A stretch of DNA of 36,931 nt from a virus. Its lineage: Duplodnaviria; Caudoviricetes. Below are positions 3,794-13,314 of this stretch, in pieces. Under the pieces are notes generated by a model. The model saw nothing but the letters and a program-made list of their open reading frames with translations, was not told the DNA's origin and did no database searches. The DNA is taken from the IMG/VR virus record IMGVR_UViG_3300016666_000042, positions 1-36,931 of that record; one strand, written 5' to 3'. How positions within the stretch are numbered: the first letter of the stretch is position 1; each line of letters begins with the position of its first letter. Position numbers and translations under genes: made by a program.

Positions 3794-4275
3794 TGCTTAC
3801 TTTATTTTCTACACTTATTTCGTTTTTATCTGGTGGATTGCCAAAATTGCTAGATTATTTTCAGGACAAATCAGATAAAAAGCACGAACTACAGTTAGCA
3901 CAATTACAACTTGAACAGCAGTTAAAGTTACAAGCTGCTGGTTATGCCTCGCAGGAGAAGATCGAGGCTATTCATACGGAGCATTTGCAGATTGAGGCTG
4001 CATCTGCTGAACGCCAGGCATTGTATAACCACGATATAGAGATCGGTAAGGGTGCTAGTCAATGGGTAATTAATATGCGCGCTATGGTGCGTCCAGCTAT
4101 TACTTTTGGTCTGTTTGGACTACTGGTATTTGTTGATGCTTTTGGCTTTTATTACGCTATCCATACAGGCGTATCCTTTGCAGACGCTATGAATATCTTG
4201 TGGGATGATGAAACTCAGATTATCTGGTCTTCTGTAGTCGCTTTTTGGTTTGGAACTCAGGCATTTAAGAAATGA
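3793..4275 (+). CDS. Putative holin (3TM GTA-holin-like)
   Basis: Start moved to ATG 3793 (TGATG overlap); three hydrophobic segments, VRPAITF and FWFG motifs; directly upstream of lysozyme. Confidence 0.65.
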   Translation: MLTLFSTLISFLSGGLPKLLDYFQDKSDKKHELQLAQLQLEQQLKLQAAGYASQEKIEAIHTEHLQIEAASAERQALYNHDIEIGKGASQWVINMRAMVRPAITFGLFGLLVFVDAFGFYYAIHTGVSFADAMNILWDDETQIIWSSVVAFWFGTQAFKK

Positions 4276-4769
4276 GAATGTCGGATAAAGCTAGAGCAAT
4301 GCTCCGGCATCATGAAGGCGTAAGAAAGAAGGCGTATTTAGATTCAGTATTGCTCTGGACTACCGGCGTAGGTCATCTGATTGCGCCAATAGAGCATCAG
4401 AAAATGACGCTGGATCAGAGGAAACAGGCTAAAGCAGAAGGCCGCTTAAATTGCCCTATAGAGTGGATGAGGACGCTAACAGATGCCGAAGTGGATCAGA
4501 TATTGCAGGATGATTTACAGCGTTTTGAGCGAGGCGTATTACGTCTTTGCCCTAATAATCTCACTCAAGGCAGGTTTGACGCTATGGTCAGCTTTGCTTT
4601 TAATGCAGGACTAGGCGCACTACAAAAGTCAAGTATCCGCATGAGGCATAATAGAGGTGATTTTGAAGGTGCTGCAAATGCTTTCATGCTGTATCGGTTT
4701 GCCTCTGGCAAGGAATTTAAAGGTTTAGTTAGACGAAGAGGCGATGAACGTGCGACTTACCTATCTTAG
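4272..4769 (+). CDS. Endolysin, GH24 phage lysozyme
   Basis: HEG-x5-YLD-x4-WTTGVGH catalytic motif, FDAMVSFAFNAG, GLVRRR. Confidence 0.93.
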   Translation: MRMSDKARAMLRHHEGVRKKAYLDSVLLWTTGVGHLIAPIEHQKMTLDQRKQAKAEGRLNCPIEWMRTLTDAEVDQILQDDLQRFERGVLRLCPNNLTQGRFDAMVSFAFNAGLGALQKSSIRMRHNRGDFEGAANAFMLYRFASGKEFKGLVRRRGDERATYLS

Positions 4770-4777
4770 GGGTTATT

Positions 4778-4990
4778 ATGAAATACCTTGTTATTGCTTC
4801 AGTCTTACTTGCCACTATTGCAGCAGCAGCGAGTTTAGACGACAATGGGAATCTTATTCTAAGTAAAGAAGAGGTTGCTAGAACTCAAGCCGTATTTAAT
4901 CAGCTGCAAACTCAAATTCATTATCAGCAAATGCGTATTGAAGAGCTAGAAAAAGCAATAATTCAGATAGAAAGGCAAAAGTGTGTCTAA
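4778..4990 (+). CDS. Small exported/membrane-anchored coiled-coil protein (possible spanin-like)
   Basis: N-terminal hydrophobic signal then Q/E-rich coiled coil; follows endolysin. Confidence 0.5.
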   Translation: MKYLVIASVLLATIAAAASLDDNGNLILSKEEVARTQAVFNQLQTQIHYQQMRIEELEKAIIQIERQKCV

Positions 4991-5197: not shown

Positions 5198-6154
5198 ATG
5201 GCAACCATTAGTGACGCAGAATTTATTAGGCTCTGGAATATTCATCAAAGTGCATCAGAAGTAGCAAAAATAATAGGTATTTCAGAAAGAGCAGTGCATA
5301 GAAAGCGCAGGGCTGTTGAGACAAAACATACTATTATTCTTGCTGCTCAAGATCCTAGAAGTCCTACATTTCAAGTGACTTATTCGCATAATAATATCAG
5401 AACTTGCGTAGATATTGATGATGGCGTAATTATGGTGGCTTCAGACTGCCATTACTGGCCTAGTATAGTATCTACAGCTCATCGCGCATTTGTAAAAATC
5501 ATCAGTGAATTAAAGCCAAAGATGGTAGTTATTAATGGCGATGTATTTGACGGTGCTTCTATCAGCCGTCATCCACCTATTGGATGGAATAGCACTCCAA
5601 CAGTAAAGCAAGAATTAGAGGCTTGCCAGGATCGTTTAGCTGAGATTGAAAACGCAGCAGGACAAGCTAAACTGCATTGGACTTGGGGAAATCACGATCT
5701 GCGATTTAACAGCAAATTAGCAACTCAGATAGGTGATACCTTTAAGGGTATTGAAGGAATGAATCTTACTGACCATTTTGCAAAGTGGAAATTTAGCACT
5801 TCAATCATGGTAAATGAAAATACGATGATTAAACACCGATGGCATAATGGTGTTCATGCTGTTTACAATAATGCTCTTAAATCAGGAACAAGTATTGTTA
5901 CAGGTCATTTGCATAGTCTAAAAGTAACACCTTGGACAGATTACAACGGAACTCGATACGGTGTAGATACTGGAACTCTAGCTTGTCCTACTGGAGATCA
6001 ATTTGCCTATACAGAAGATAATCCAGTAAATCATCGCTCTGGTTTTGCAGTTCTTACATATTACAAAGGCAATTTAATGCCACCAGAACTTTGCGAGGTT
6101 ATTGATGAAGATGAGGGTCTGGTTTATTTCCGTGGGCAGGTTGTAGAGTGCTAA
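5198..6154 (+). CDS. Calcineurin-like metallophosphoesterase with N-terminal HTH-like segment
   Basis: SDCH, NGDVFD, GNHD, GHLH metal-binding motifs; SEVAKIIGISERAV HTH-like. Confidence 0.88.
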   Translation: MATISDAEFIRLWNIHQSASEVAKIIGISERAVHRKRRAVETKHTIILAAQDPRSPTFQVTYSHNNIRTCVDIDDGVIMVASDCHYWPSIVSTAHRAFVKIISELKPKMVVINGDVFDGASISRHPPIGWNSTPTVKQELEACQDRLAEIENAAGQAKLHWTWGNHDLRFNSKLATQIGDTFKGIEGMNLTDHFAKWKFSTSIMVNENTMIKHRWHNGVHAVYNNALKSGTSIVTGHLHSLKVTPWTDYNGTRYGVDTGTLACPTGDQFAYTEDNPVNHRSGFAVLTYYKGNLMPPELCEVIDEDEGLVYFRGQVVEC

Positions 6155-6464
6155 GAGGAATTGAGCCTATTTTCTTTCTGGCTCTATATTCTTTAGCTCT
6201 AAGTGAAGCAGATTTTTTCTTTTTAGCTTTATCTTTGCCAGCTCCAAATCGGTAAATAGGTGTGCAGTCTCTTCCTCTGCGATCTGACTCCCAGCCGCAA
6301 ATATGGACAATCTTATGCTTGTGGAATAGCCTCATAAGTCTTTGAGATGAGACAATGTGGAAACCAATTTCATCAGATAATTCATATGGAGTTGCATCAT
6401 TGGTCATTAAGTATTTTATTAGTAATGTATAGTGCAATTGATTTACCCGAATCATTTTCCGCAA
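6099..6464 (-). CDS. Putative winged-HTH DNA-binding protein
   Basis: TPYELSDEIGFH...LHK..VHICGW...PIYRFG; basic tail; last gene of the leftward operon. Confidence 0.6.
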   Translation of the reverse strand: MRKMIRVNQLHYTLLIKYLMTNDATPYELSDEIGFHIVSSQRLMRLFHKHKIVHICGWESDRRGRDCTPIYRFGAGKDKAKKKKSASLRAKEYRARKKIGSIPLSTLQPAHGNKPDPHLHQ

Positions 6465-6655
6465 ATTTTTTTCTTAGCCTCTGCCATACTTGTTTCAAAC
6501 CACCATCCTACGCAAGCATTATCTAAATCTAGCCTTTTAACTGATTTTGCTCCATCTTGAAATCCTCGATGATATTCTTGATCCATCTTATCTACTTGAA
6601 CAACTGCTAATCCCCATAAAATAACCAAAATTCCTAGAGCAAATGCAATTTTCAT
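6452..6655 (-). CDS. Small membrane protein
   Basis: N-terminal TM helix, YHRGFQDG; ATGA-coupled. Confidence 0.6.
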   Translation of the reverse strand: MKIAFALGILVILWGLAVVQVDKMDQEYHRGFQDGAKSVKRLDLDNACVGWWFETSMAEAKKKICGK

Positions 6656-6840
6656 AGCAATTCCCTTATTTTTTTAACGGGTACATTAAATGATTCATGG
6701 ATACGCAAAATTACGTCTGGAGATACTACGCTACCATGTCTGATCTTGCTGATTGTTGCTGTACTCAAGCTAAGTGCATGAGCCAGAGATCGGTCATTTT
6801 TAATTCTGTATGTTTTAAGTATGTAATCTAATAGTTTCAT
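6652..6840 (-). CDS. Small Cro/XRE-type HTH protein
   Basis: NDRSLAHALSLSTATISKIRHG helix-turn-helix. Confidence 0.75.
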   Translation of the reverse strand: MKLLDYILKTYRIKNDRSLAHALSLSTATISKIRHGSVVSPDVILRIHESFNVPVKKIRELL

Positions 6841-6846
6841 ATTTTT

Positions 6847-7089
6847 TTAATCAAACATCCAAGAAGGTAATTTCCCGCTTACATATCTTTTTGCTGCATT
6901 TTTTCTTTGCGCTTTTTCTACATTCTCTACTGTTAATTTATTAAGCTGTTTATTTTCAGGAAATGCTATTTTTTTCCCATCTGTTTTTGCTCTTTCTTCC
7001 ATGCAATTACCATGAACAAACTCATACTTCCCTTTGCCTCTTGGTAATTTGCATATTGGACATGGATTGTAAATAGATTTTTTTTTCAT
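6847..7089 (-). CDS. Hypothetical protein with CxxC...HxxC zinc-binding motif
   Basis: CPIC...HGNC; GAGG RBS upstream. Confidence 0.6.
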   Translation of the reverse strand: MKKKSIYNPCPICKLPRGKGKYEFVHGNCMEERAKTDGKKIAFPENKQLNKLTVENVEKAQRKNAAKRYVSGKLPSWMFD

Positions 7090-7100
7090 AATATCCTCGT

Positions 7101-7183
7101 TAGTGCAGGGTCACTGGCGATTGGGAGTCGAAGGAGACAGCCAGCCCCTGCTGCCGGAGTTACGCGCCACTACCGGCTGGGCG
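7101..7183 (-). ncRNA. Candidate structured small RNA B: pseudoknot plus hairpin with anti-RBS loop
   Basis: Minus strand CGCC/GGCG and GCCGG/CCGGC crossing stems; then GCAGGG/CCCUGC and GCUGGC/GCCAGU enclosing loop UGUCUCCUUCGACUCCCAAUC; GC-rich island in AT-rich operon. Confidence 0.7.
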
Positions 7184-7187
7184 TGTT

Positions 7188-7257
7188 TGGTGAGGTACTC
7201 GCTGCGTCTGTTTGATCTGATAGCTTATAGGAACTATCACAGTATCCGCTTTCCCTC
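7188..7257 (-). ncRNA. Candidate structured small RNA A
   Basis: GAGG/CCUC closing stem followed by ACCA; GAAA/GAGUA internal loop; CUG/CAG stem; inner UGAUAG/CUAUCA hairpin. Confidence 0.65.
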
Positions 7258-7262
7258 GTAAC

Positions 7263-7511
7263 TTAAAACGGTATATCGTCTGGTGGCAAATCGTCTACAG
7301 GATCAGCCTTTTTCTTTGCTGGTTTATCGTCTTTTAGCTTAAAGCTGCAAGACATAAATTTCCCAGATTTACCTTCTTTAAGCCATGCAGATACCCAGAT
7401 TGCATTTCCATCTAAATCCTTGCCATCACCCTTGTAATCAGGGTGGTTATCTGCTTCTTTCTTGTCATTCTTAAACAAAGAAAATGATCCTGGTTTAGCT
7501 TCGTATGCCAT
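7263..7511 (-). CDS. SSB-like single-stranded DNA-binding protein
   Basis: SLFKN, HPDYKG, WVSAW, acidic tail ending DDIPF; adjacent to ERF. Confidence 0.72.
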   Translation of the reverse strand: MAYEAKPGSFSLFKNDKKEADNHPDYKGDGKDLDGNAIWVSAWLKEGKSGKFMSCSFKLKDDKPAKKKADPVDDLPPDDIPF

Positions 7512-8180
7512 TTATTTACCTTTCGCTTCTTCATTCATTGTTTTCAAAGTGCTACGACATTTACTGCTTAATTGCGCCCAAACTGCTGTTGATGCTGTTA
7601 CATCAAAAGTAGATTGATCTCGCAAATCCCATGCTTCAAATGCAGCCCATTCGTTACCGGCATCAAACTGCGCCTGAATGTGAGCTGCTAACTTGTCCAC
7701 CAAAGCCGCTAAACGGCTGTCTAAGGCTTCTTTTGCACCATCTGTAGCCGAGATAGTCTTTTTCTCTTTGAGAGGCTCAGAGGCGTCTATAGCGTCATGT
7801 TCGCATATTGCCAAAGCCATAACTAACAGATAGCGAGTAATGTAGGTAATGGATGCGCCAAGGTTCTGAACTGGATGGCAACCTTTTAGGTGCGCCTCAG
7901 CCATAGGGCAACAGAATTTAATTGCTCCACCGGTTTCCTTGTCATAAATCCACATTGTTGCCAGTTCTCTGTCAAATTCAAGAGTTTGGCAAAGTCCTAA
8001 ATCTAGGAAAATCTGGTTAACGGCTGGCAGGAAGTCTCCAAGCTCAAAATAACGGTATCCTGCAAACTTATTGTGACCTGACTTTTTAAGCTCCATAGAT
8101 TGCAGCTTGATCCGTGCAGTCTGTAACTTATCGTAAATCATCCATTGCTGCTGTTCTTGCTGCTCTTGTGCTTGTCTCAT
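7512..8180 (-). CDS. erf: ERF-family single-strand annealing recombinase
   Basis: KKSGHNKFAGYRYFELGD and QNLGASITYITRYLL...D motifs. Confidence 0.85.
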   Translation of the reverse strand: MRQAQEQQEQQQWMIYDKLQTARIKLQSMELKKSGHNKFAGYRYFELGDFLPAVNQIFLDLGLCQTLEFDRELATMWIYDKETGGAIKFCCPMAEAHLKGCHPVQNLGASITYITRYLLVMALAICEHDAIDASEPLKEKKTISATDGAKEALDSRLAALVDKLAAHIQAQFDAGNEWAAFEAWDLRDQSTFDVTASTAVWAQLSSKCRSTLKTMNEEAKGK

Positions 8181-8193
8181 TTATTTAGCTCCA

Positions 8194-8364
8194 TTACTTA
8201 ACTTTATCGCGGAAATTATTGAAAGACCGAACTTTCGAAAGTGAACGATCCGCTTCAGCCTTTGCTTGCTGCTCACGAATCCTTTTAAAAGTTTCCTCAA
8301 CATTGGTCTTATGGCTCGGTACATATTTAAATCTAGGGTCTAGGATTGATTTTGGGTCTGCCAT
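8194..8364 (-). CDS. Small hypothetical protein, 56 aa (not in ORF track)
   Basis: Hand translation MADPKSILDPRFKYVPSHKTNVEETFKRIREQ...; AGGAGG RBS. Confidence 0.7.
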   Translation of the reverse strand: MADPKSILDPRFKYVPSHKTNVEETFKRIREQQAKAEADRSLSKVRSFNNFRDKVK

Positions 8365-8371
8365 ACTCCTC

Positions 8372-8482
8372 CTAAAAAGATGAAATTATAAGAGTAAACA
8401 AAATAATCAGGAACCACAATACCTTTGGATGACGTGCCAGCCAATCATCAGTATTAAACAGTTTTTTCTCTAGTTCGCTCAT
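8372..8482 (-). CDS. Small membrane peptide, 36 aa (not in ORF track)
   Basis: MSELEKKLFNTDDWLARHPKVLWFLIIFVYSIISSF; AAGGAG RBS; ATGA overlap with upstream ORF. Confidence 0.65.
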   Translation of the reverse strand: MSELEKKLFNTDDWLARHPKVLWFLIILFTLIISSF

Positions 8483-8661
8483 TCTCTTTCGTCTCCTTCT
8501 ATCTCGTTAGCTAAAAAGTGGATTTCTTGTGTCGGCAATCTAAGTGCTTCATACGCCATCATCAGTACTTCTTGTTCGCTTTCATTTAAATCCCTACGCT
8601 CAAACTTATCTACCATTTCACGTAAGACATAAACCATTTCTGCTATTGCCCATTTATCCAT
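8479..8661 (-). CDS. Small acidic hypothetical protein
   Basis: GGGAG RBS; tightly packed in operon. Confidence 0.65.
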   Translation of the reverse strand: MDKWAIAEMVYVLREMVDKFERRDLNESEQEVLMMAYEALRLPTQEIHFLANEIEGDERE

Positions 8662-8743
8662 TTGCGTACTCCCTCATTTGTTGATTAGCAGCTTCCAGCT
8701 CATCCTGGGTGACTAGATCGGGTATCTCATCAAAGTAGTCCAT
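8654..8743 (-). CDS. Small acidic peptide, 29 aa (not in ORF track)
   Basis: MDYFDEIPDLVTQDELEAANQQMREYANG; strong TAAGGAG RBS. Confidence 0.6.
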   Translation of the reverse strand: MDYFDEIPDLVTQDELEAANQQMREYANG

Positions 8744-8753
8744 TTATTTCTCC

Positions 8754-8894
8754 TTAAATTTCCTCAACAGATTCAATTTGCCACATTAATGCCAATGCTC
8801 TTAAATTTGCGTCCGACATTGATTTATGAATTTCAACATTGCGAAATTCTTTATTAAGGATTTTGCTATAAACATAAAAGGTAACTTTGAACAT
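8754..8894 (-). CDS. First gene of leftward operon, 46 aa (not in ORF track)
   Basis: MFKVTFYVYSKILNKEFRNVEIHKSMSDANLRALALMWQIESVEEI; GGGAG RBS 6 nt upstream. Confidence 0.65.
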   Translation of the reverse strand: MFKVTFYVYSKILNKEFRNVEIHKSMSDANLRALALMWQIESVEEI

Positions 8895-8931
8895 TTAAGA
8901 CTCCCAAGAAGTTGTTTAGTAGGTGAAACAG

Positions 8932-8960
8932 ATTATGAGGCAAGTATTTAGAAAAGTAAA
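8932..8960 (-). promoter_or_regulatory. Putative leftward sigma70 promoter
   Basis: Minus strand TTTACT-N17-CATAAT. Confidence 0.55.
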
Positions 8961-8967
8961 GTAAAAA

Positions 8968-9001
8968 TATTTCTATTGGTAAATTAAAGTCAATAGAAAT
9001 A
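8968..9001. promoter_or_regulatory. 11-bp inverted repeat between divergent promoters (operator-like)
   Basis: TATTTCTATTG-N12-CAATAGAAATA. Confidence 0.6.
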
Positions 9002-9006
9002 ATTCA

Positions 9007-9034
9007 TTGACGTAAACAAAAATTAGTGTAATCT
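9007..9034 (+). promoter_or_regulatory. Putative rightward sigma70 promoter
   Basis: TTGACG-N16-TAATCT. Confidence 0.55.
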
Positions 9035-9058
9035 GAAGGCTCTTTTAACGGGGGTGAT

Positions 9059-9238
9059 ATGAGAGATCCAGGGTGGTGGCGTGAATTTGAGCAGGAATAT
9101 AACGAACGTGAAGAAAGATTAGCAGAAATAGCTGAAAAACATAAGGAATGGAAGCAAAAGTTGCAACAAGAGCAAAAGCCTTCATTGTGGCGCAAACGGC
9201 AAATAGTCGGACTAGAGGAGCAAAATGAGAAAGATTGA
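9059..9238 (+). CDS. First gene of rightward operon, 59 aa charged protein (not in ORF track)
   Basis: MRDPGWWREFEQEYNEREERLAE...; GGGGGTG RBS; preferred over the antisense ORF 9004-9195. Confidence 0.65.
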   Translation: MRDPGWWREFEQEYNEREERLAEIAEKHKEWKQKLQQEQKPSLWRKRQIVGLEEQNEKD

Positions 9239-9407
9239 TGGTTTTTTACTAATAGTTATTGCTTATACGTTTTTAGTAGCGGTATCAGTAGGATCAAGTA
9301 TTTTATTAATTGAATTACTATTTTTTAAACAATCCGGCATCAAATATGACTGCACTACAGCGTCATTTAATCCAGATGCTGCTAACAGGGAGATATGCAG
9401 AAAATGA
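9225..9407 (+). CDS. Small membrane protein
   Basis: GAGGAG RBS; long hydrophobic N-terminus; YDC...FNPD...CRK. Confidence 0.65.
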   Translation: MRKIDGFLLIVIAYTFLVAVSVGSSILLIELLFFKQSGIKYDCTTASFNPDAANREICRK

Positions 9408-9610
9408 CTAATTTAGAATGCTACTTTTATTCGTTTGATGGCGGTACTTTGGAGTGCTGGTTTGAATATGAGCCAGCGGACAAGGATCTGGGATATAACG
9501 GCAATGCTTATCTAGTAAAAGCAATGGTTGGAAATGCAGATATTACTGATTTGCTAGACAAAAAAATTGTTGAGGAAATTGAGGTTGCTTGCTGCAACTC
9601 AATGGAGTGA
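9395..9610 (+). CDS. Hypothetical acidic protein
   Basis: Operon context; LECWFEYEP, DITDLL. Confidence 0.65.
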   Translation: MQKMTNLECYFYSFDGGTLECWFEYEPADKDLGYNGNAYLVKAMVGNADITDLLDKKIVEEIEVACCNSME

Positions 9611-9616
9611 GATTAA

Positions 9617-9877
9617 ATGAAACCAACACAAGAGCAAGTAATAGCATGGGCGCAAGCCGTAGGAATGGAACGATGCGATTGTGAGCCGCGTTGCCATTTG
9701 CACACTGGAGGAATGGGAAGCCTAACTGCTTTAGTTGACATCGCCTATGAAGCAGGTCGCAAGTATGAGAATGAGGAAATAGCCGTTGAGTTTGATAAAC
9801 GACATGAAGCGGTCAAGCATCGAAATAATTACTTTTTACACGCTGCCAATTATGTACGCGCAAGGAGAGAACAATGA
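9617..9877 (+). CDS. Hypothetical protein
   Basis: GGAG RBS; ends VRARREQ like many small phage proteins. Confidence 0.6.
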   Translation: MKPTQEQVIAWAQAVGMERCDCEPRCHLHTGGMGSLTALVDIAYEAGRKYENEEIAVEFDKRHEAVKHRNNYFLHAANYVRARREQ

Positions 9878-10113
9878 CTGACAAACAACCAGAAGCATTG
9901 AGGTTGGCTGATGCGTTTGGCATACCACATTGGACAGGGCTTCCAATCGCCTTACACGTAGAAGCCGCAGCAGAACTACGCCGACTGCATGAAGTGAATG
10001 CGGAGTTGGTGGAAGCATTAAGCGTAATTATTTGTGGAGTACCTGACACATGGGATGGTGTTAAACAAGCGAAAGTAATACTTGATAAAACAAAGGAGAA
10101 AAACAATGGCTAA
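9874..10113 (+). CDS. Hypothetical protein
   Basis: AAGGAG RBS; QPEALRLAD and AAAELRRLH motifs common in phage accessory proteins. Confidence 0.7.
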   Translation: MTDKQPEALRLADAFGIPHWTGLPIALHVEAAAELRRLHEVNAELVEALSVIICGVPDTWDGVKQAKVILDKTKEKNNG

Positions 10114-10300
10114 ATTACCTTACACAATTACCATCTGCCCAGACCAGCCAAACCCAAAGCAGTTCACAGCGATGACACCGGCGTTAGTTAATGCTTTGCG
10201 CTACACAAACGACTTGACGATAGACCAACGGCAGTACGTTTATCCGACAGCACCGCAAGCAGTTACACAAATCAATACGCATAAGGAGAAAAACACATGA
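10106..10300 (+). CDS. Hypothetical protein
   Basis: Start moved to ATG 10106 behind AAGGAG. Confidence 0.6.
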   Translation: MAKLPYTITICPDQPNPKQFTAMTPALVNALRYTNDLTIDQRQYVYPTAPQAVTQINTHKEKNT

Positions 10301-10731
10301 TAGAACTTCCAAAAAAAGGAACAAAACGCTATCAGATGTGTGTTAATTTCATCCGATCTGGCTATATGACTTTAGGTTCGTATATTGAAGAATATGGACT
10401 TATGGGATTTTCTAAACCTTATGGTCTTAGAGCTGAATTTGATGAGTTAATAAAAAAACAATGTTTGCGGTATTTTAACGAACGATATTCTCCTACTGTA
10501 GCATTGCTAAGTACGCTTAAAATGGACGATTACGTCTACGTTGAGCCTAGAATTCCGCCGCCATTTAAGCCAATGGAGTCTAAGCATTACTTGCCAAAAG
10601 TCTCTCCAAGAGGCGATGAAATACGTCAAATCAGTTATATAGGAATGGGAAAACATGTTGCAGCAGGAACAGAAACAACCGATACAGTATCAGTTCTCAA
10701 CGAAGTTTTGTCAGGGCTGCAAGCGGAGTAG
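10297..10731 (+). CDS. Hypothetical protein
   Basis: TAAGGAG RBS; ATGA overlap. Confidence 0.65.
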   Translation: MIELPKKGTKRYQMCVNFIRSGYMTLGSYIEEYGLMGFSKPYGLRAEFDELIKKQCLRYFNERYSPTVALLSTLKMDDYVYVEPRIPPPFKPMESKHYLPKVSPRGDEIRQISYIGMGKHVAAGTETTDTVSVLNEVLSGLQAE

Positions 10732-10801
10732 ATCGGCAGTGCAGTTTAAAAACAATGAAACTTTATGCAAAATGTGTAGATTGCGGAAACCTAAGGTATA
10801 A
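10655..10801 (+). CDS. Small zinc-ribbon protein, 48 aa (not in ORF track)
   Basis: MLQQEQKQPIQYQFSTKFCQGCKRSRSAVQFKNNETLCKMCRLRKPKV, CxxC...CxxC; overlaps end of upstream ORF. Confidence 0.55.
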   Translation: MLQQEQKQPIQYQFSTKFCQGCKRSRSAVQFKNNETLCKMCRLRKPKV

Positions 10802-10807
10802 TTTTAC

Positions 10808-10904
10808 AGGAATGGCTAGGCTTGCTACCGAAAAGACGACTTCTCACCGTCCTGCCAATTCCTACCTTATGTGAGAGCCGAGGATGACAACCTCATGAGA
10901 AAGG
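10808..10904 (+). ncRNA. Candidate structured RNA C / leader upstream of the replication initiator
   Basis: AGGAAU/AUUCCU and GGC/GCC outer stem; GACG/CGUC hairpin with loop ACUUCUCAC; TATAAT at 10797-10802 just upstream. Confidence 0.55.
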
Positions 10905-10910
10905 CACAGT

Positions 10911-11558
10911 ATGATCTTACGTCCTAAAAATTGGTCTGAATATCAGCATTACAAAGACCGAAATCCACCCTGGATTAAATTACATCGTGATCTATTAAAT
11001 GATCGTGATTTTATGTGCTTGCCTATTGCTAGCAAGGCGATAGCACCATTGCTCTGGTTGCTAGCATCCGAGTCTAAATTAGGCGAATTCAACGCAGATA
11101 TTGTCGAATTGTCATTTAGGCTTAGGCTTACTGAAAAAGAAGTAAAGGATGGGCTTAACCCATTGATTGCAAAAGGATTCTTTGTTGATGCTAGCGGTAT
11201 GCTAGCAGAGTGCTTGCAAGATGCTAGACCAGAGACAGAGAGAGAGACAGAGAAAGAGACAAATAATAATTCTAAAAACGCAATAAAAATTGATCTACCA
11301 GACTGGCTACCGGAAGTTCATTGGAAAGACTTTGTTGAGTTTAGAAAGTTTATTAAAAAGCCAATGACTGCAAAAGCCATGCAACTCATGATTAGCAAAT
11401 TAGAAAGATTTAAAGAGGCTGGTCATAACCCTATTGAGGCTTTAAATCGAAGCATTGCTAACAACTGGAGCGATGTATACGAACCTAAATCTGATTCTGC
11501 AAGCAAAAGCAAATCAACTCCTCATTTGAAGTATTGGGAGAAAGGCTACCGGCCATGA
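10911..11558 (+). CDS. Replication initiator (replisome organiser, lambda O-like role)
   Basis: KNWSEYQHYKDRNPPWIKL N-terminus; C-terminal WKDFVEFRK...SIANNW domain; upstream of helicase; internal iterons. Confidence 0.8.
   Translation: MILRPKNWSEYQHYKDRNPPWIKLHRDLLNDRDFMCLPIASKAIAPLLWLLASESKLGEFNADIVELSFRLRLTEKEVKDGLNPLIAKGFFVDASGMLAECLQDARPETERETEKETNNNSKNAIKIDLPDWLPEVHWKDFVEFRKFIKKPMTAKAMQLMISKLERFKEAGHNPIEALNRSIANNWSDVYEPKSDSASKSKSTPHLKYWEKGYRP
11188..11290. repeat. Probable replication origin: four 11-bp phased repeats, GA tract, AT-rich tract
   Basis: ATGCTAGCGGT ATGCTAGCAGA GTGCTTGCAAG ATGCTAGACCA (11188-11231), then GAGACAGAGA-type tract to 11260 and AT-rich run. Confidence 0.65.
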
Positions 11559-11905
11559 GAGGTCATCAACAGCTCATAAAGCTACGCATATCTGGTTTTA
11601 CTCCTAAAGGCGTATGGGTCAATTACGGCGAAGATAAGACAAACAACTGTCTGCACTGGACAAAGTGGGATGACACATTGCCATATCCTGAAATTGAGAT
11701 TTTACCGATAGAAAATATCAATCAACTGGACTTGCGTTTTTCTGTAGGATTAACTGTGCATTTAACGACTAAAGAAAATTATGAAAAGGCTTCAAAACTT
11801 CATAAGGCTTTCTTGGCGGCTAAAGCAAAACGGGTCATTACAGTTTGTGATGGTTATTTAATCGACAGCGAAACGGGAGTTCACAGTGACTATGTTCCTG
11901 AATGA
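11555..11905 (+). CDS. Hypothetical protein between initiator and helicase
   Basis: Start moved to ATG 11555 (ATGA overlap); DLRFSVGLTVH. Confidence 0.7.
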   Translation: MRGHQQLIKLRISGFTPKGVWVNYGEDKTNNCLHWTKWDDTLPYPEIEILPIENINQLDLRFSVGLTVHLTTKENYEKASKLHKAFLAAKAKRVITVCDGYLIDSETGVHSDYVPE

Positions 11906-12839
11906 CAACATAGACTTTGCTGCTTATCTTCATGCTACAGACCATAAGTATCTTGTTAAAGACGCATCTGTTTGGGTTGATGAGCTTGCAGACAATCTGG
12001 ATAATACAGTTATTGAAAAAGAAACAAAGATGCTTTGGGAGCAAACCAAAGACTTTGCATTTCGTCCAGGCGAGGTAACAGTATGGGCAGGTTCAAATGG
12101 TGGTGGTAAGTCCTTACTAACTGGTCAGGTTGCTCTTGGTTTAATCAAAGCTGGCGAAAAAGTGTGCGTCCAGAGCTTTGAGATGAAACCTAAAGTATCT
12201 ATTAAACGGCTTATAAGGCAGTTCTCAGGCGAAAACATAGACTGGCAAGCATCCAGATATGGACTGGACTACAAACGCGCCTTATACAACCGTTTTAAGG
12301 CTTTTGCGACAGGCAATCTTTGGTTCTACGATCAGCAGGGAACGGTTACGCCAGAGCAAGTTATCAGTGTGTCAAGATATTGCGCCTTAGAGCTTGGCAT
12401 AACGCATATCTTCATTGACAGCTTGATGAAGTGTGTCAGGGGTGAGGATGACTATAACGGTCAGAAGGCTTTTGTGGATGAGATAACTGCACTTGCTAGA
12501 GATCATAATGTACACGTACATCTAGTCCACCATATCCGCAAATTGCAGTCGGATGAGAATATGCCAAATAAGAACGATCTGCGAGGTTCCAGCTCAATCA
12601 CGGATCAGGTCGATAATGTGTTTATTGTGTGGCGCAACAAAAAGAAAGAAAACGAAATTAATCGTGGACAAGAGACAGATTTAAGTTCTCCGGACATGAT
12701 TTTGATGAACGAAAAGCAGAGGAATGGTGAATCAACAGAGTGGTATAACTTCTGGTATCACAGGGATTCAACGCAGTTCATTGAGAAATGGCAGGGTTTT
12801 CCGCAGGACTTTGATAATAAAGGGCGATTTAAAGGATGA
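11886..12839 (+). CDS. DnaB/T7 gp4-like SF4 replicative helicase (no primase domain)
   Basis: FRPGEVTVWAGSNGGGKS Walker A, SFEM, IFIDSL, HLVHHIRK, DLRGSSSITDQVDNV, KQRNG. Confidence 0.9.
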   Translation: MTMFLNDNIDFAAYLHATDHKYLVKDASVWVDELADNLDNTVIEKETKMLWEQTKDFAFRPGEVTVWAGSNGGGKSLLTGQVALGLIKAGEKVCVQSFEMKPKVSIKRLIRQFSGENIDWQASRYGLDYKRALYNRFKAFATGNLWFYDQQGTVTPEQVISVSRYCALELGITHIFIDSLMKCVRGEDDYNGQKAFVDEITALARDHNVHVHLVHHIRKLQSDENMPNKNDLRGSSSITDQVDNVFIVWRNKKKENEINRGQETDLSSPDMILMNEKQRNGESTEWYNFWYHRDSTQFIEKWQGFPQDFDNKGRFKG

Positions 12840-13039
12840 ATGAGTTTTTCGAAGAAGAACGTCACAGATGCGAAGTAAGAACGATAATTAGATGGCGGTT
12901 GCAAGATAGAAACAAAGCAATAGATTACATAGAGTTAGTTAGAAAAAAACGAGGTGATGCTGCTGCAAATAGGTTACATAAAGATGCGGTAGATCAATGG
13001 ACAAAAGGAAGTAAAGGTATTCATGGGGAGTGGAAGTGA
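12836..13039 (+). CDS. Hypothetical protein
   Basis: ATGA-coupled; RHRCEVR, KKRG, DQW. Confidence 0.7.
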   Translation: MNEFFEEERHRCEVRTIIRWRLQDRNKAIDYIELVRKKRGDAAANRLHKDAVDQWTKGSKGIHGEWK

Positions 13040-13314
13040 CATATAAGCGAGTTGATGATAACCAGGCTAAAGTAGTCCGAGCATTACGTGCTGAAGGTAT
13101 GACAGTTCAACATCTGCACGCAGTAGGTCGCGGATGTCCTGATTTGCTTGTGGGATGGAAAAATAAAAATTTATTACTTGAGATTAAAGATGGAGCAAAA
13201 GCCTGGAAACTAACACCAGATCAGGTAATTTGGCATCACAACTGGCAAGGTCAAATAGCAATAGTAATTAGTCCAGAGGATGCAATAGAGAAAGTAAAAG
13301 ATGCCATCAAATAA
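13030..13314 (+). CDS. PD-(D/E)xK nuclease (VRR-NUC-like, possible resolvase)
   Basis: RVDDNQ, GCPDLLVG, LLEIK, LTPDQ motifs. Confidence 0.8.
   Translation: MEVTYKRVDDNQAKVVRALRAEGMTVQHLHAVGRGCPDLLVGWKNKNLLLEIKDGAKAWKLTPDQVIWHHNWQGQIAIVISPEDAIEKVKDAIK

Follow-up and report, generated by a model that had tools for sequence, protein, structure and literature searches.

A conserved two-domain phage RNA, divergently related to Proteo-phage-1, carries a variable anti-Shine-Dalgarno loop in a tailed phage early operon

The Proteo-phage-1 RNA (RF03044), which is typed in Rfam as 'Gene; sRNA' and was reportedly described by Weinberg et al. in 2017, is the named relative of the RNA element described here. 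The antisense RNAs C4 of phages P1 and P7 (RF01695) and CI of phage P4 likewise combine a conserved scaffold with a variable loop within a phage operon. RsaE-type sRNAs are characterised by C-rich loops. These sRNAs and the actinobacterial 6C RNA share unpaired pyrimidine-rich loop tracts able to pair with many G-rich starts, and 6C provides a precedent for C-rich loops that pair in Shine-Dalgarno (SD) fashion with many targets (PMC6486639). The C4 b' loop overlaps ribosome-binding sites in part (PMC5320573). A further system of comparable shape is the put RNA of phage HK022, in the cryo-EM structure of which the 5' strand is paired into stem I, A9 pairs with the single linker base G35 and stem II is bulged (PMC9378689). 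The put RNAs bind the beta' zinc-binding domain of the polymerase and bring about antitermination without a protein.

The element is located in a stretch of 36,931 bases, hereafter the window, which is a complete virus record with direct terminal repeats. Comparison of 54 proteins of the genome with PHROGs identified the terminase, portal, capsid, lysis and replication genes of a tailed phage, and none of these proteins matched an integrase. The element is encoded on the minus strand of a leftward early operon, with the Erf-like and ssDNA-binding genes as its 5' neighbours and four small genes on its 3' side, and a gene of the SSB family is the closest upstream gene in 54 of the examined loci. 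Strong SD sites (AAGGAGA, GGGAGU) occur only in the early genes (6099-13314), most late genes having a weak SD or none. Elsewhere in the window, a near-cut-off match to the Rfam family int-alpA (10809-10877, plus strand; 34.5 bits, cut-off 35.8) precedes a replication gene at 10911. The features of the element and its upstream neighbours are as follows.

8180-7512, minus strand: Erf-like annealing gene (PHROGs), upstream of the element (upstream context 7263..8180)
7511-7263, minus strand: ssDNA-binding gene (PHROGs), directly upstream of the element
7188..7257, minus strand: motif A, a hairpin with a variable apex followed by ACCA, recognised by its fold; separate from and upstream of the knot
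7153..7183, minus strand: H-type pseudoknot domain, Proteo-phage-1-like by sequence, covariation and a weak RF03044 match at 7207-7149
7152, minus strand: single unpaired linker A from the knot to the bulged stem, from the sequence; A in 11 of 11 RF03044 members above the cut-off (by eye; not selected there)
7105..7151, minus strand: bulged stem P3, from folds; the upper pairs covary
7119..7139, minus strand: variable loop with two anti-SD tracts, CUCCUU (7136-7131) and CUCC (7127-7124), and a GUC/GAC mini-hairpin, from the sequence and loop counts

The initial annotation had described a pseudoknot (CGCC 7183-7180 with GGCG 7168-7165; GCCGG 7177-7173 with CCGGC 7157-7153), a bulged 12-bp stem and a 21-nt loop, all of which were recovered, the knot at exactly these coordinates, the stem at 7151-7140/7118-7105 with a GA bulge and the loop at 7139-7119. 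The 5' strand of the knot is joined to the stem by a 2-nt linker of which the last base is A7178, and the stem is lengthened by pairing of GU (7170-7169) with AC (7160-7159). P3 comprises a lower stem of 6 bp (7151-7146/7110-7105), the GA bulge (7112-7111) and an upper stem of 6 bp (7145-7140/7118-7113), the first pair of which is G-U. Pattern scans of viral contigs yielded 52, 22, 89, 71 and at least 120 stretches in overlapping sets, and the element is present in well over 100 uncultured phage contigs. The stems covary: in an alignment of 58 relatives 97.1% of the cells are paired and 12 of the 24 pairs are altered on both sides, a level reached by none of 500 shuffles, and structures slid along the alignment are only 27-54% paired. 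In this set the search pattern itself had imposed the lower part of the bulged stem, and P3 was retested with patterns ending at or just behind the knot. A stem of 6 bp with a short bulge on its 3' side and an upper stem, which were not part of these patterns, are found in 71 of 114 distinct scaffolds, as compared with 15 of 2280 shuffles; 63 of the 71 have a GA bulge. This two-domain structured RNA is thus real, beyond chance and widespread. A CsrA sponge on the opposite strand was set aside, G-U pairs and the direction of the operon favouring the minus strand, and presumed resemblances to the twister, HDV-like and hairpin ribozymes are inconsistent with the covarying pairs. No terminator or promoter bounding the RNA was found within the window, and a hairpin with a U-tract follows P3 in just two of 124 distinct 3' flanks. 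ACC or ACU comes after P3 in 41 of the 71 scaffolds, which is at most a hint of the RNase P processing that is a feature of the C4 and CI RNAs.

In a focused Rfam scan RF03044 covers the knot at 16.2 bits, against a gathering cut-off of 42, and the scaffold therefore has a named relative, although a below-threshold one that is absent from the whole-window scan, where no match was obtained at the element. Gathering-level matches to RF03044 were likewise found in none of eight relatives and none of five records, one relative (L007) being without any match. Eleven members above the cut-off were obtained from bacterial genomes (2/151 and 10/151 genomes, one shared), and they share with the window the knot core AG-stem-GUG-knot strand...AAC-stem-A, which is also borne out by the alignment of the window to the model and by the covariation among the relatives. 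The window differs from RF03044 in its knot sequence, its shorter loop and its 5' hairpin, the position 5' of the knot being occupied by a hairpin in RF03044 and by another one, motif A, in the window. Judged by this shared core, the window element is a divergent relative of Proteo-phage-1 and not a member by score. When inspected by eye, eight of the eleven members run on into a similar bulged stem around a variable insert, and anti-SD-like tracts are present in five of these eight inserts and absent from three. The 3' end of the RF03044 model falls just short of this conserved bulged stem and insert (L282, L283, L288-L296), and the bulged stem and anti-SD loop of the window type likewise lie past it. 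The Rfam model seems to end ahead of the variable domain and could be extended. A further variant occurs in a group that includes Pseudomonas phage F116, where the knot is present without an adjacent stem and another hairpin follows 6-10 nt further on. Second, weaker matches to the model are located ~1.3-1.8 kb behind the first copy in two loci (L043, 7820-7893; L021, 7293-7363).

Other searches for relatives were less productive. A pattern built from the Rfam consensus matched no viral contigs, a metagenome scan with a looser pattern gave mostly chance matches (TAAC upstream in 12 of 119 stretches), and the looser pattern matched genome contigs twice, once genuinely. No long complement in cis was found around RF03044 members or divergent members. 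A literature search returned no paper on Proteo-phage-1 or this RNA, the supplements of PMC5737381 and PMC10690425 being covered partly or not at all, and the motif may be among the candidates of PMC10690425.

The element appears to have structured company. Motif A, with the internal loop GAAA/AGUA and the strands GAAAGCGG...GCGAGUA, occurs in one or two copies upstream in 40 of the 70 discovery and 12 of the 46 replication loci defined below, matches no Rfam family and probably belongs to the same RNA array. Copies are followed by ACC, and with its stem and ACCA end motif A looks like an RNase P substrate. In L056, L062, L071, L098 and their relatives more conserved hairpins are found just behind the element, and the gap after the SSB gene would thus be an array of several structured RNAs.

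The loop of P3 varies in length and sequence, but retains UCCUU at its 5' side. TCCTT is found in 45 of 71 loops (mean 5.7, maximum 12 in shuffles) and CTCC in 33 (10.7 in shuffles), while GGAG is found in none; the 43 of 114 scaffolds in which P3 was not detected are left out of these counts, which overstate independence since the loops are related by descent. CCTT is present in 94 of 106 distinct loops and lies no more than 5 nt from the 5' end of the loop in 84. In 43 of the 94 a short hairpin of 2-3 bp could form between the CCUU and a GG that follows, and part of the conservation of CCUU may therefore be structural. Binding to an ideal SD is only slightly better than plain base composition predicts (mean -7.8 as compared with -6.8 kcal/mol; better in 16 of 22 clusters). 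The commonest loop complements, AAAGGA and AAGGAG, are within the top four hexamers of 2132 start regions. The loop counts support the view that the variable loop is selected to stay anti-Shine-Dalgarno.

In the window itself, 18 loop nucleotides form two adjoining 9-mers, GUCUCCUUC and GACUCCCAA, which, as first reported, have perfect complements ahead of the starts at 8482 and 8894; neither has another in the 36.9-kb genome.

8491..8499, minus strand: GAAGGAGAC, start region of the 36-aa ORF 8482-8372; 9-nt loop complement, not conserved as such in orthologues
8899..8907, minus strand: UUGGGAGUC, start region of the first leftward ORF 8894-8754; 9-nt loop complement, in this genome only

From this coincidence the initial annotation had proposed that the loop carries two 9-nt guides specific to this genome, which would shut off the 36-aa gene and the first operon gene in the manner of the C4 and CI antisense RNAs. 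That both 9-mers are perfect, unique and placed on start regions speaks for this proposal, yet the unlikelihood of the double match is only moderate: P is ~0.005 when foreign start regions are drawn in equal numbers for comparison, and the double match recurs in 195 of 3000 loops (0.065) in which both anti-SD cores were kept and the flanks randomised. The pairing does extend beyond the SD core, but the extending bases, GUC opening the first 9-mer and GAC opening the second, close a 3-bp mini-hairpin between them (unpaired probability ~0.2), and the bases credited with specificity are thus also a structural pair. Moreover, among 45 foreign loops ten are complementary to a start region of the window over 9 or 10 nt, thereby equalling or surpassing the loop of the window itself.

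Each loop was compared with the start regions of its own locus (phage DNA, up to 10 kb on each side) and of foreign loci, in a discovery set of 70 loci in 22 loop clusters and a replication set of 46 loci in 43 clusters. Loci of less than 4 kb, duplicates, L102 (a long insert without an anti-SD loop) and L413 (loop mis-parsed) were left out, and genes were called approximately, by a simple script that recovered the window's early starts. In this comparison, named by the initial annotation as the test of its model, loops matched the ribosome-binding sites of their own genome no better than foreign ones in the 70 and 46 loci. The 30 own-versus-foreign tests of the discovery set gave cluster mean z values from -0.34 to +0.37 (best p 0.025), the 24 tests of the replication set were null (best p 0.028), 36 double-centred tests showed no consistent signal, and neither a bipartite C4-like model nor a search for complements across the whole locus departed from the null. 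Own matches of at least 9 nt numbered nine in the discovery set, where 2.7 were expected, two of them being those of the window and the rest coming from about three clades; the replication set yielded four where 4.3 were expected, and two such matches occur together in two of the 116 tested loci.

The particular targets fare no better. Among 18 loci with an identical first guide its complement lies at a called start in none, the second 9-mer is found in one of 90 loops, and in 14 other loci the orthologue of the 36-aa gene is matched by the loop of its own locus over just 4-6 nt. An energy test for the first operon gene gave p 0.012, but this signal is confounded with clade and is not seen when match length is scored (5.15 versus 5.11). 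Across 77 gene families the difference between own and foreign is -0.03 (sd 0.36), with five families at p<0.05 and five at p>0.95. A more favourable case is that of four related genomes (L110, L124, L129 and L395), in which loops reading UUCCUUUGG pair over 9-10 bp with CCAAAGGAA before one large gene (~960 aa where complete), the start of which is located 530-800 nt behind the element; if any target is specific, this start is the strongest candidate, though in a single clade and possibly by chance. As a general target the large downstream gene was rejected as a single-clade coincidence (28 replication pairs, p 0.088), as were the start of a 67-aa gene of family 21 situated ~700 nt downstream (p 0.30 within the family) and, as a clade effect, the ERF start. 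The comparative tests largely refute the private-guide model, which we now consider very unlikely. Of the original antisense reading, the conserved scaffold, the variable anti-SD loop and the pairable early genes stand, while the two genome-specific guides do not. Loops of the window type thus differ from those of C4 and CI, which co-vary with targets in their own genomes; C4 in addition folds into three stem-loops, as opposed to a knot and one stem, and the window gives no Rfam match to RF01695, in agreement with the lack of resemblance to C4 and CI noted at the outset.

Since the loops of relatives show no preference for the genes of their own genome over foreign genes, generic damping is likelier than two tailor-made guides. 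The reading we favour, at a probability of roughly 0.4, is that the element is a generic anti-Shine-Dalgarno display which would pair in trans with many strong ribosome-binding sites. In the window, ten of 24 early starts and none of 38 other starts are complementary to the loop over at least 6 nt (Fisher p 1.8e-5), the early and late classes and the 62 starts having been defined after the data were inspected; with only early starts matching, a generic anti-SD loop would suffice to pick out early genes without tailoring. In the relatives such complementarity is found at 19% of early and 10% of late starts, whether the loops compared are own or foreign. ViennaRNA co-folding energies were not used, as co-folding cannot model loop pairing. 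The RNA would be cut out of the early transcript and released as a stable species, its 5' end shielded by the knot, and pairing of the loop over 6-9 bp with strong SD sites would block ribosome loading, such that the accumulating RNA may damp translation of early genes and probably also of the host. The two 9-mers would be the best among many generic matches and not private targets. The conserved unpaired anti-SD tract in its loop makes the element comparable to C-rich-loop sRNAs of the 6C and RsaE type, although no match to either family was obtained in Rfam scans of the window. The 6C RNA is encoded by Gram-positive hosts, is unrelated in fold and sequence and has demonstrated targets (PMC6486639), whereas the pairing of the window element is predicted. 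Pairings of 6-9 bp are short, which counts against a generic display, as do the missing terminator and promoter, the RF03044 inserts devoid of an anti-SD tract and the F116-type knots that have no stem next to them.

The same loop statistics could be read as pointing outside the phage, to particular host or rival-phage mRNAs, or to mimicry of the 16S rRNA tail that would occupy a host protein such as a nuclease or a protein of the ribosome. Whereas the anti-SD core is conserved, the bases flanking it vary and do not follow the phage's own genes, and two loops (L151, L388) read ACCUCCUUA, the sequence of the 16S 3' end, although most loops copy just 5-7 nt of that tail. Own loops also match the start of the next gene slightly worse than permuted loops do, but this avoidance shrank to p 0.03 in one of 36 tests after control for clade and GC, and an outside target is unlikely overall. 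The loop might instead fold back in cis on the ribosome-binding site of the next gene (at 7089 in the window) and block it. In 80 of 116 loci a gene starts no more than 110 nt away, and any SD yields 4-5 bp. No start is within reach at the other 36 loci, however, the window loop matches its next gene over 4 nt, and the mean pairing with the next gene is 4.61 nt for own and 5.04 nt for permuted loops, making such a cis block highly improbable.

The main alternative to a display in trans concerns the knot and not the loop. Like HK022 put, the element might act in cis on RNA polymerase and make it resist pausing or termination, the loop being secondary. Both RNAs have a 5'-strand knot, a 2-nt linker ending in A, a 5-bp stem, a 1-nt linker and a bulged second stem; in putL the corresponding elements are A3-G7/C15-U19, the 2-nt linker AA, a 5-bp stem and one linker base, with the bulge of the second stem on its 3' side (PMC9378689), and the HK022 sequence fits. 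In F116 the knot is located in the early-operon leader beside a cI-like gene, with a terminator four genes on, and a CI-like repressor is encoded upstream in six of eight tested F116-type loci, the knot thus taking the place of putL. In one locus (L010) a BstA abortive-infection gene (4041-4952, plus strand) is found between the CI-like repressor and the knot-bearing leader. The position just behind an early promoter, as for put, is, however, seen in F116 and not in window-type phages, where the element is located mid-operon (median distances of 1.7 kb to the start and 1.0 kb to the end of the gene run). The adjacent second stem, which put needs, is missing from F116-type members. The linker base is A7152 in the window, whereas put requires G35 and the G35A change abolishes its activity (PMC9378689). 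A model built here (R1) found neither put site in the HK022 stretch, and terminators behind the element are without clear enrichment (2 of 68 behind it and 0 upstream; 10 of 40 as compared with 4). A put-like action would also leave unexplained the conserved UCCUU of the long anti-SD loop, a feature of the window element in which put differs. We regard antitermination of this kind as a possible but doubtful explanation. A combination of both activities, in which the knot clamps the RNA on RNA polymerase and the anti-SD loop sits at the exit channel and catches emerging ribosome-binding sites, is conceivable but has little probability.

Through these observations a catalogued but unexplained phage RNA motif gains a second domain and, with it, a strong functional clue, in that the loop appears to be selected to resemble the anti-Shine-Dalgarno tail of the ribosome. 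Cultured phages such as F116 carry the knot. Should a put-like action prove true, protein-free antitermination would extend well beyond the enterobacterial phages, and were the loop clamped on the polymerase, one RNA would control elongation and silence early genes with strong SD sites but spare late genes with weak ones, constituting a protein-free early-to-late switch. If, on the favoured reading, the RNA acts in trans, phages could time their programme through strong early SD sites, weak late ones and, subsequently, a generic SD blocker.
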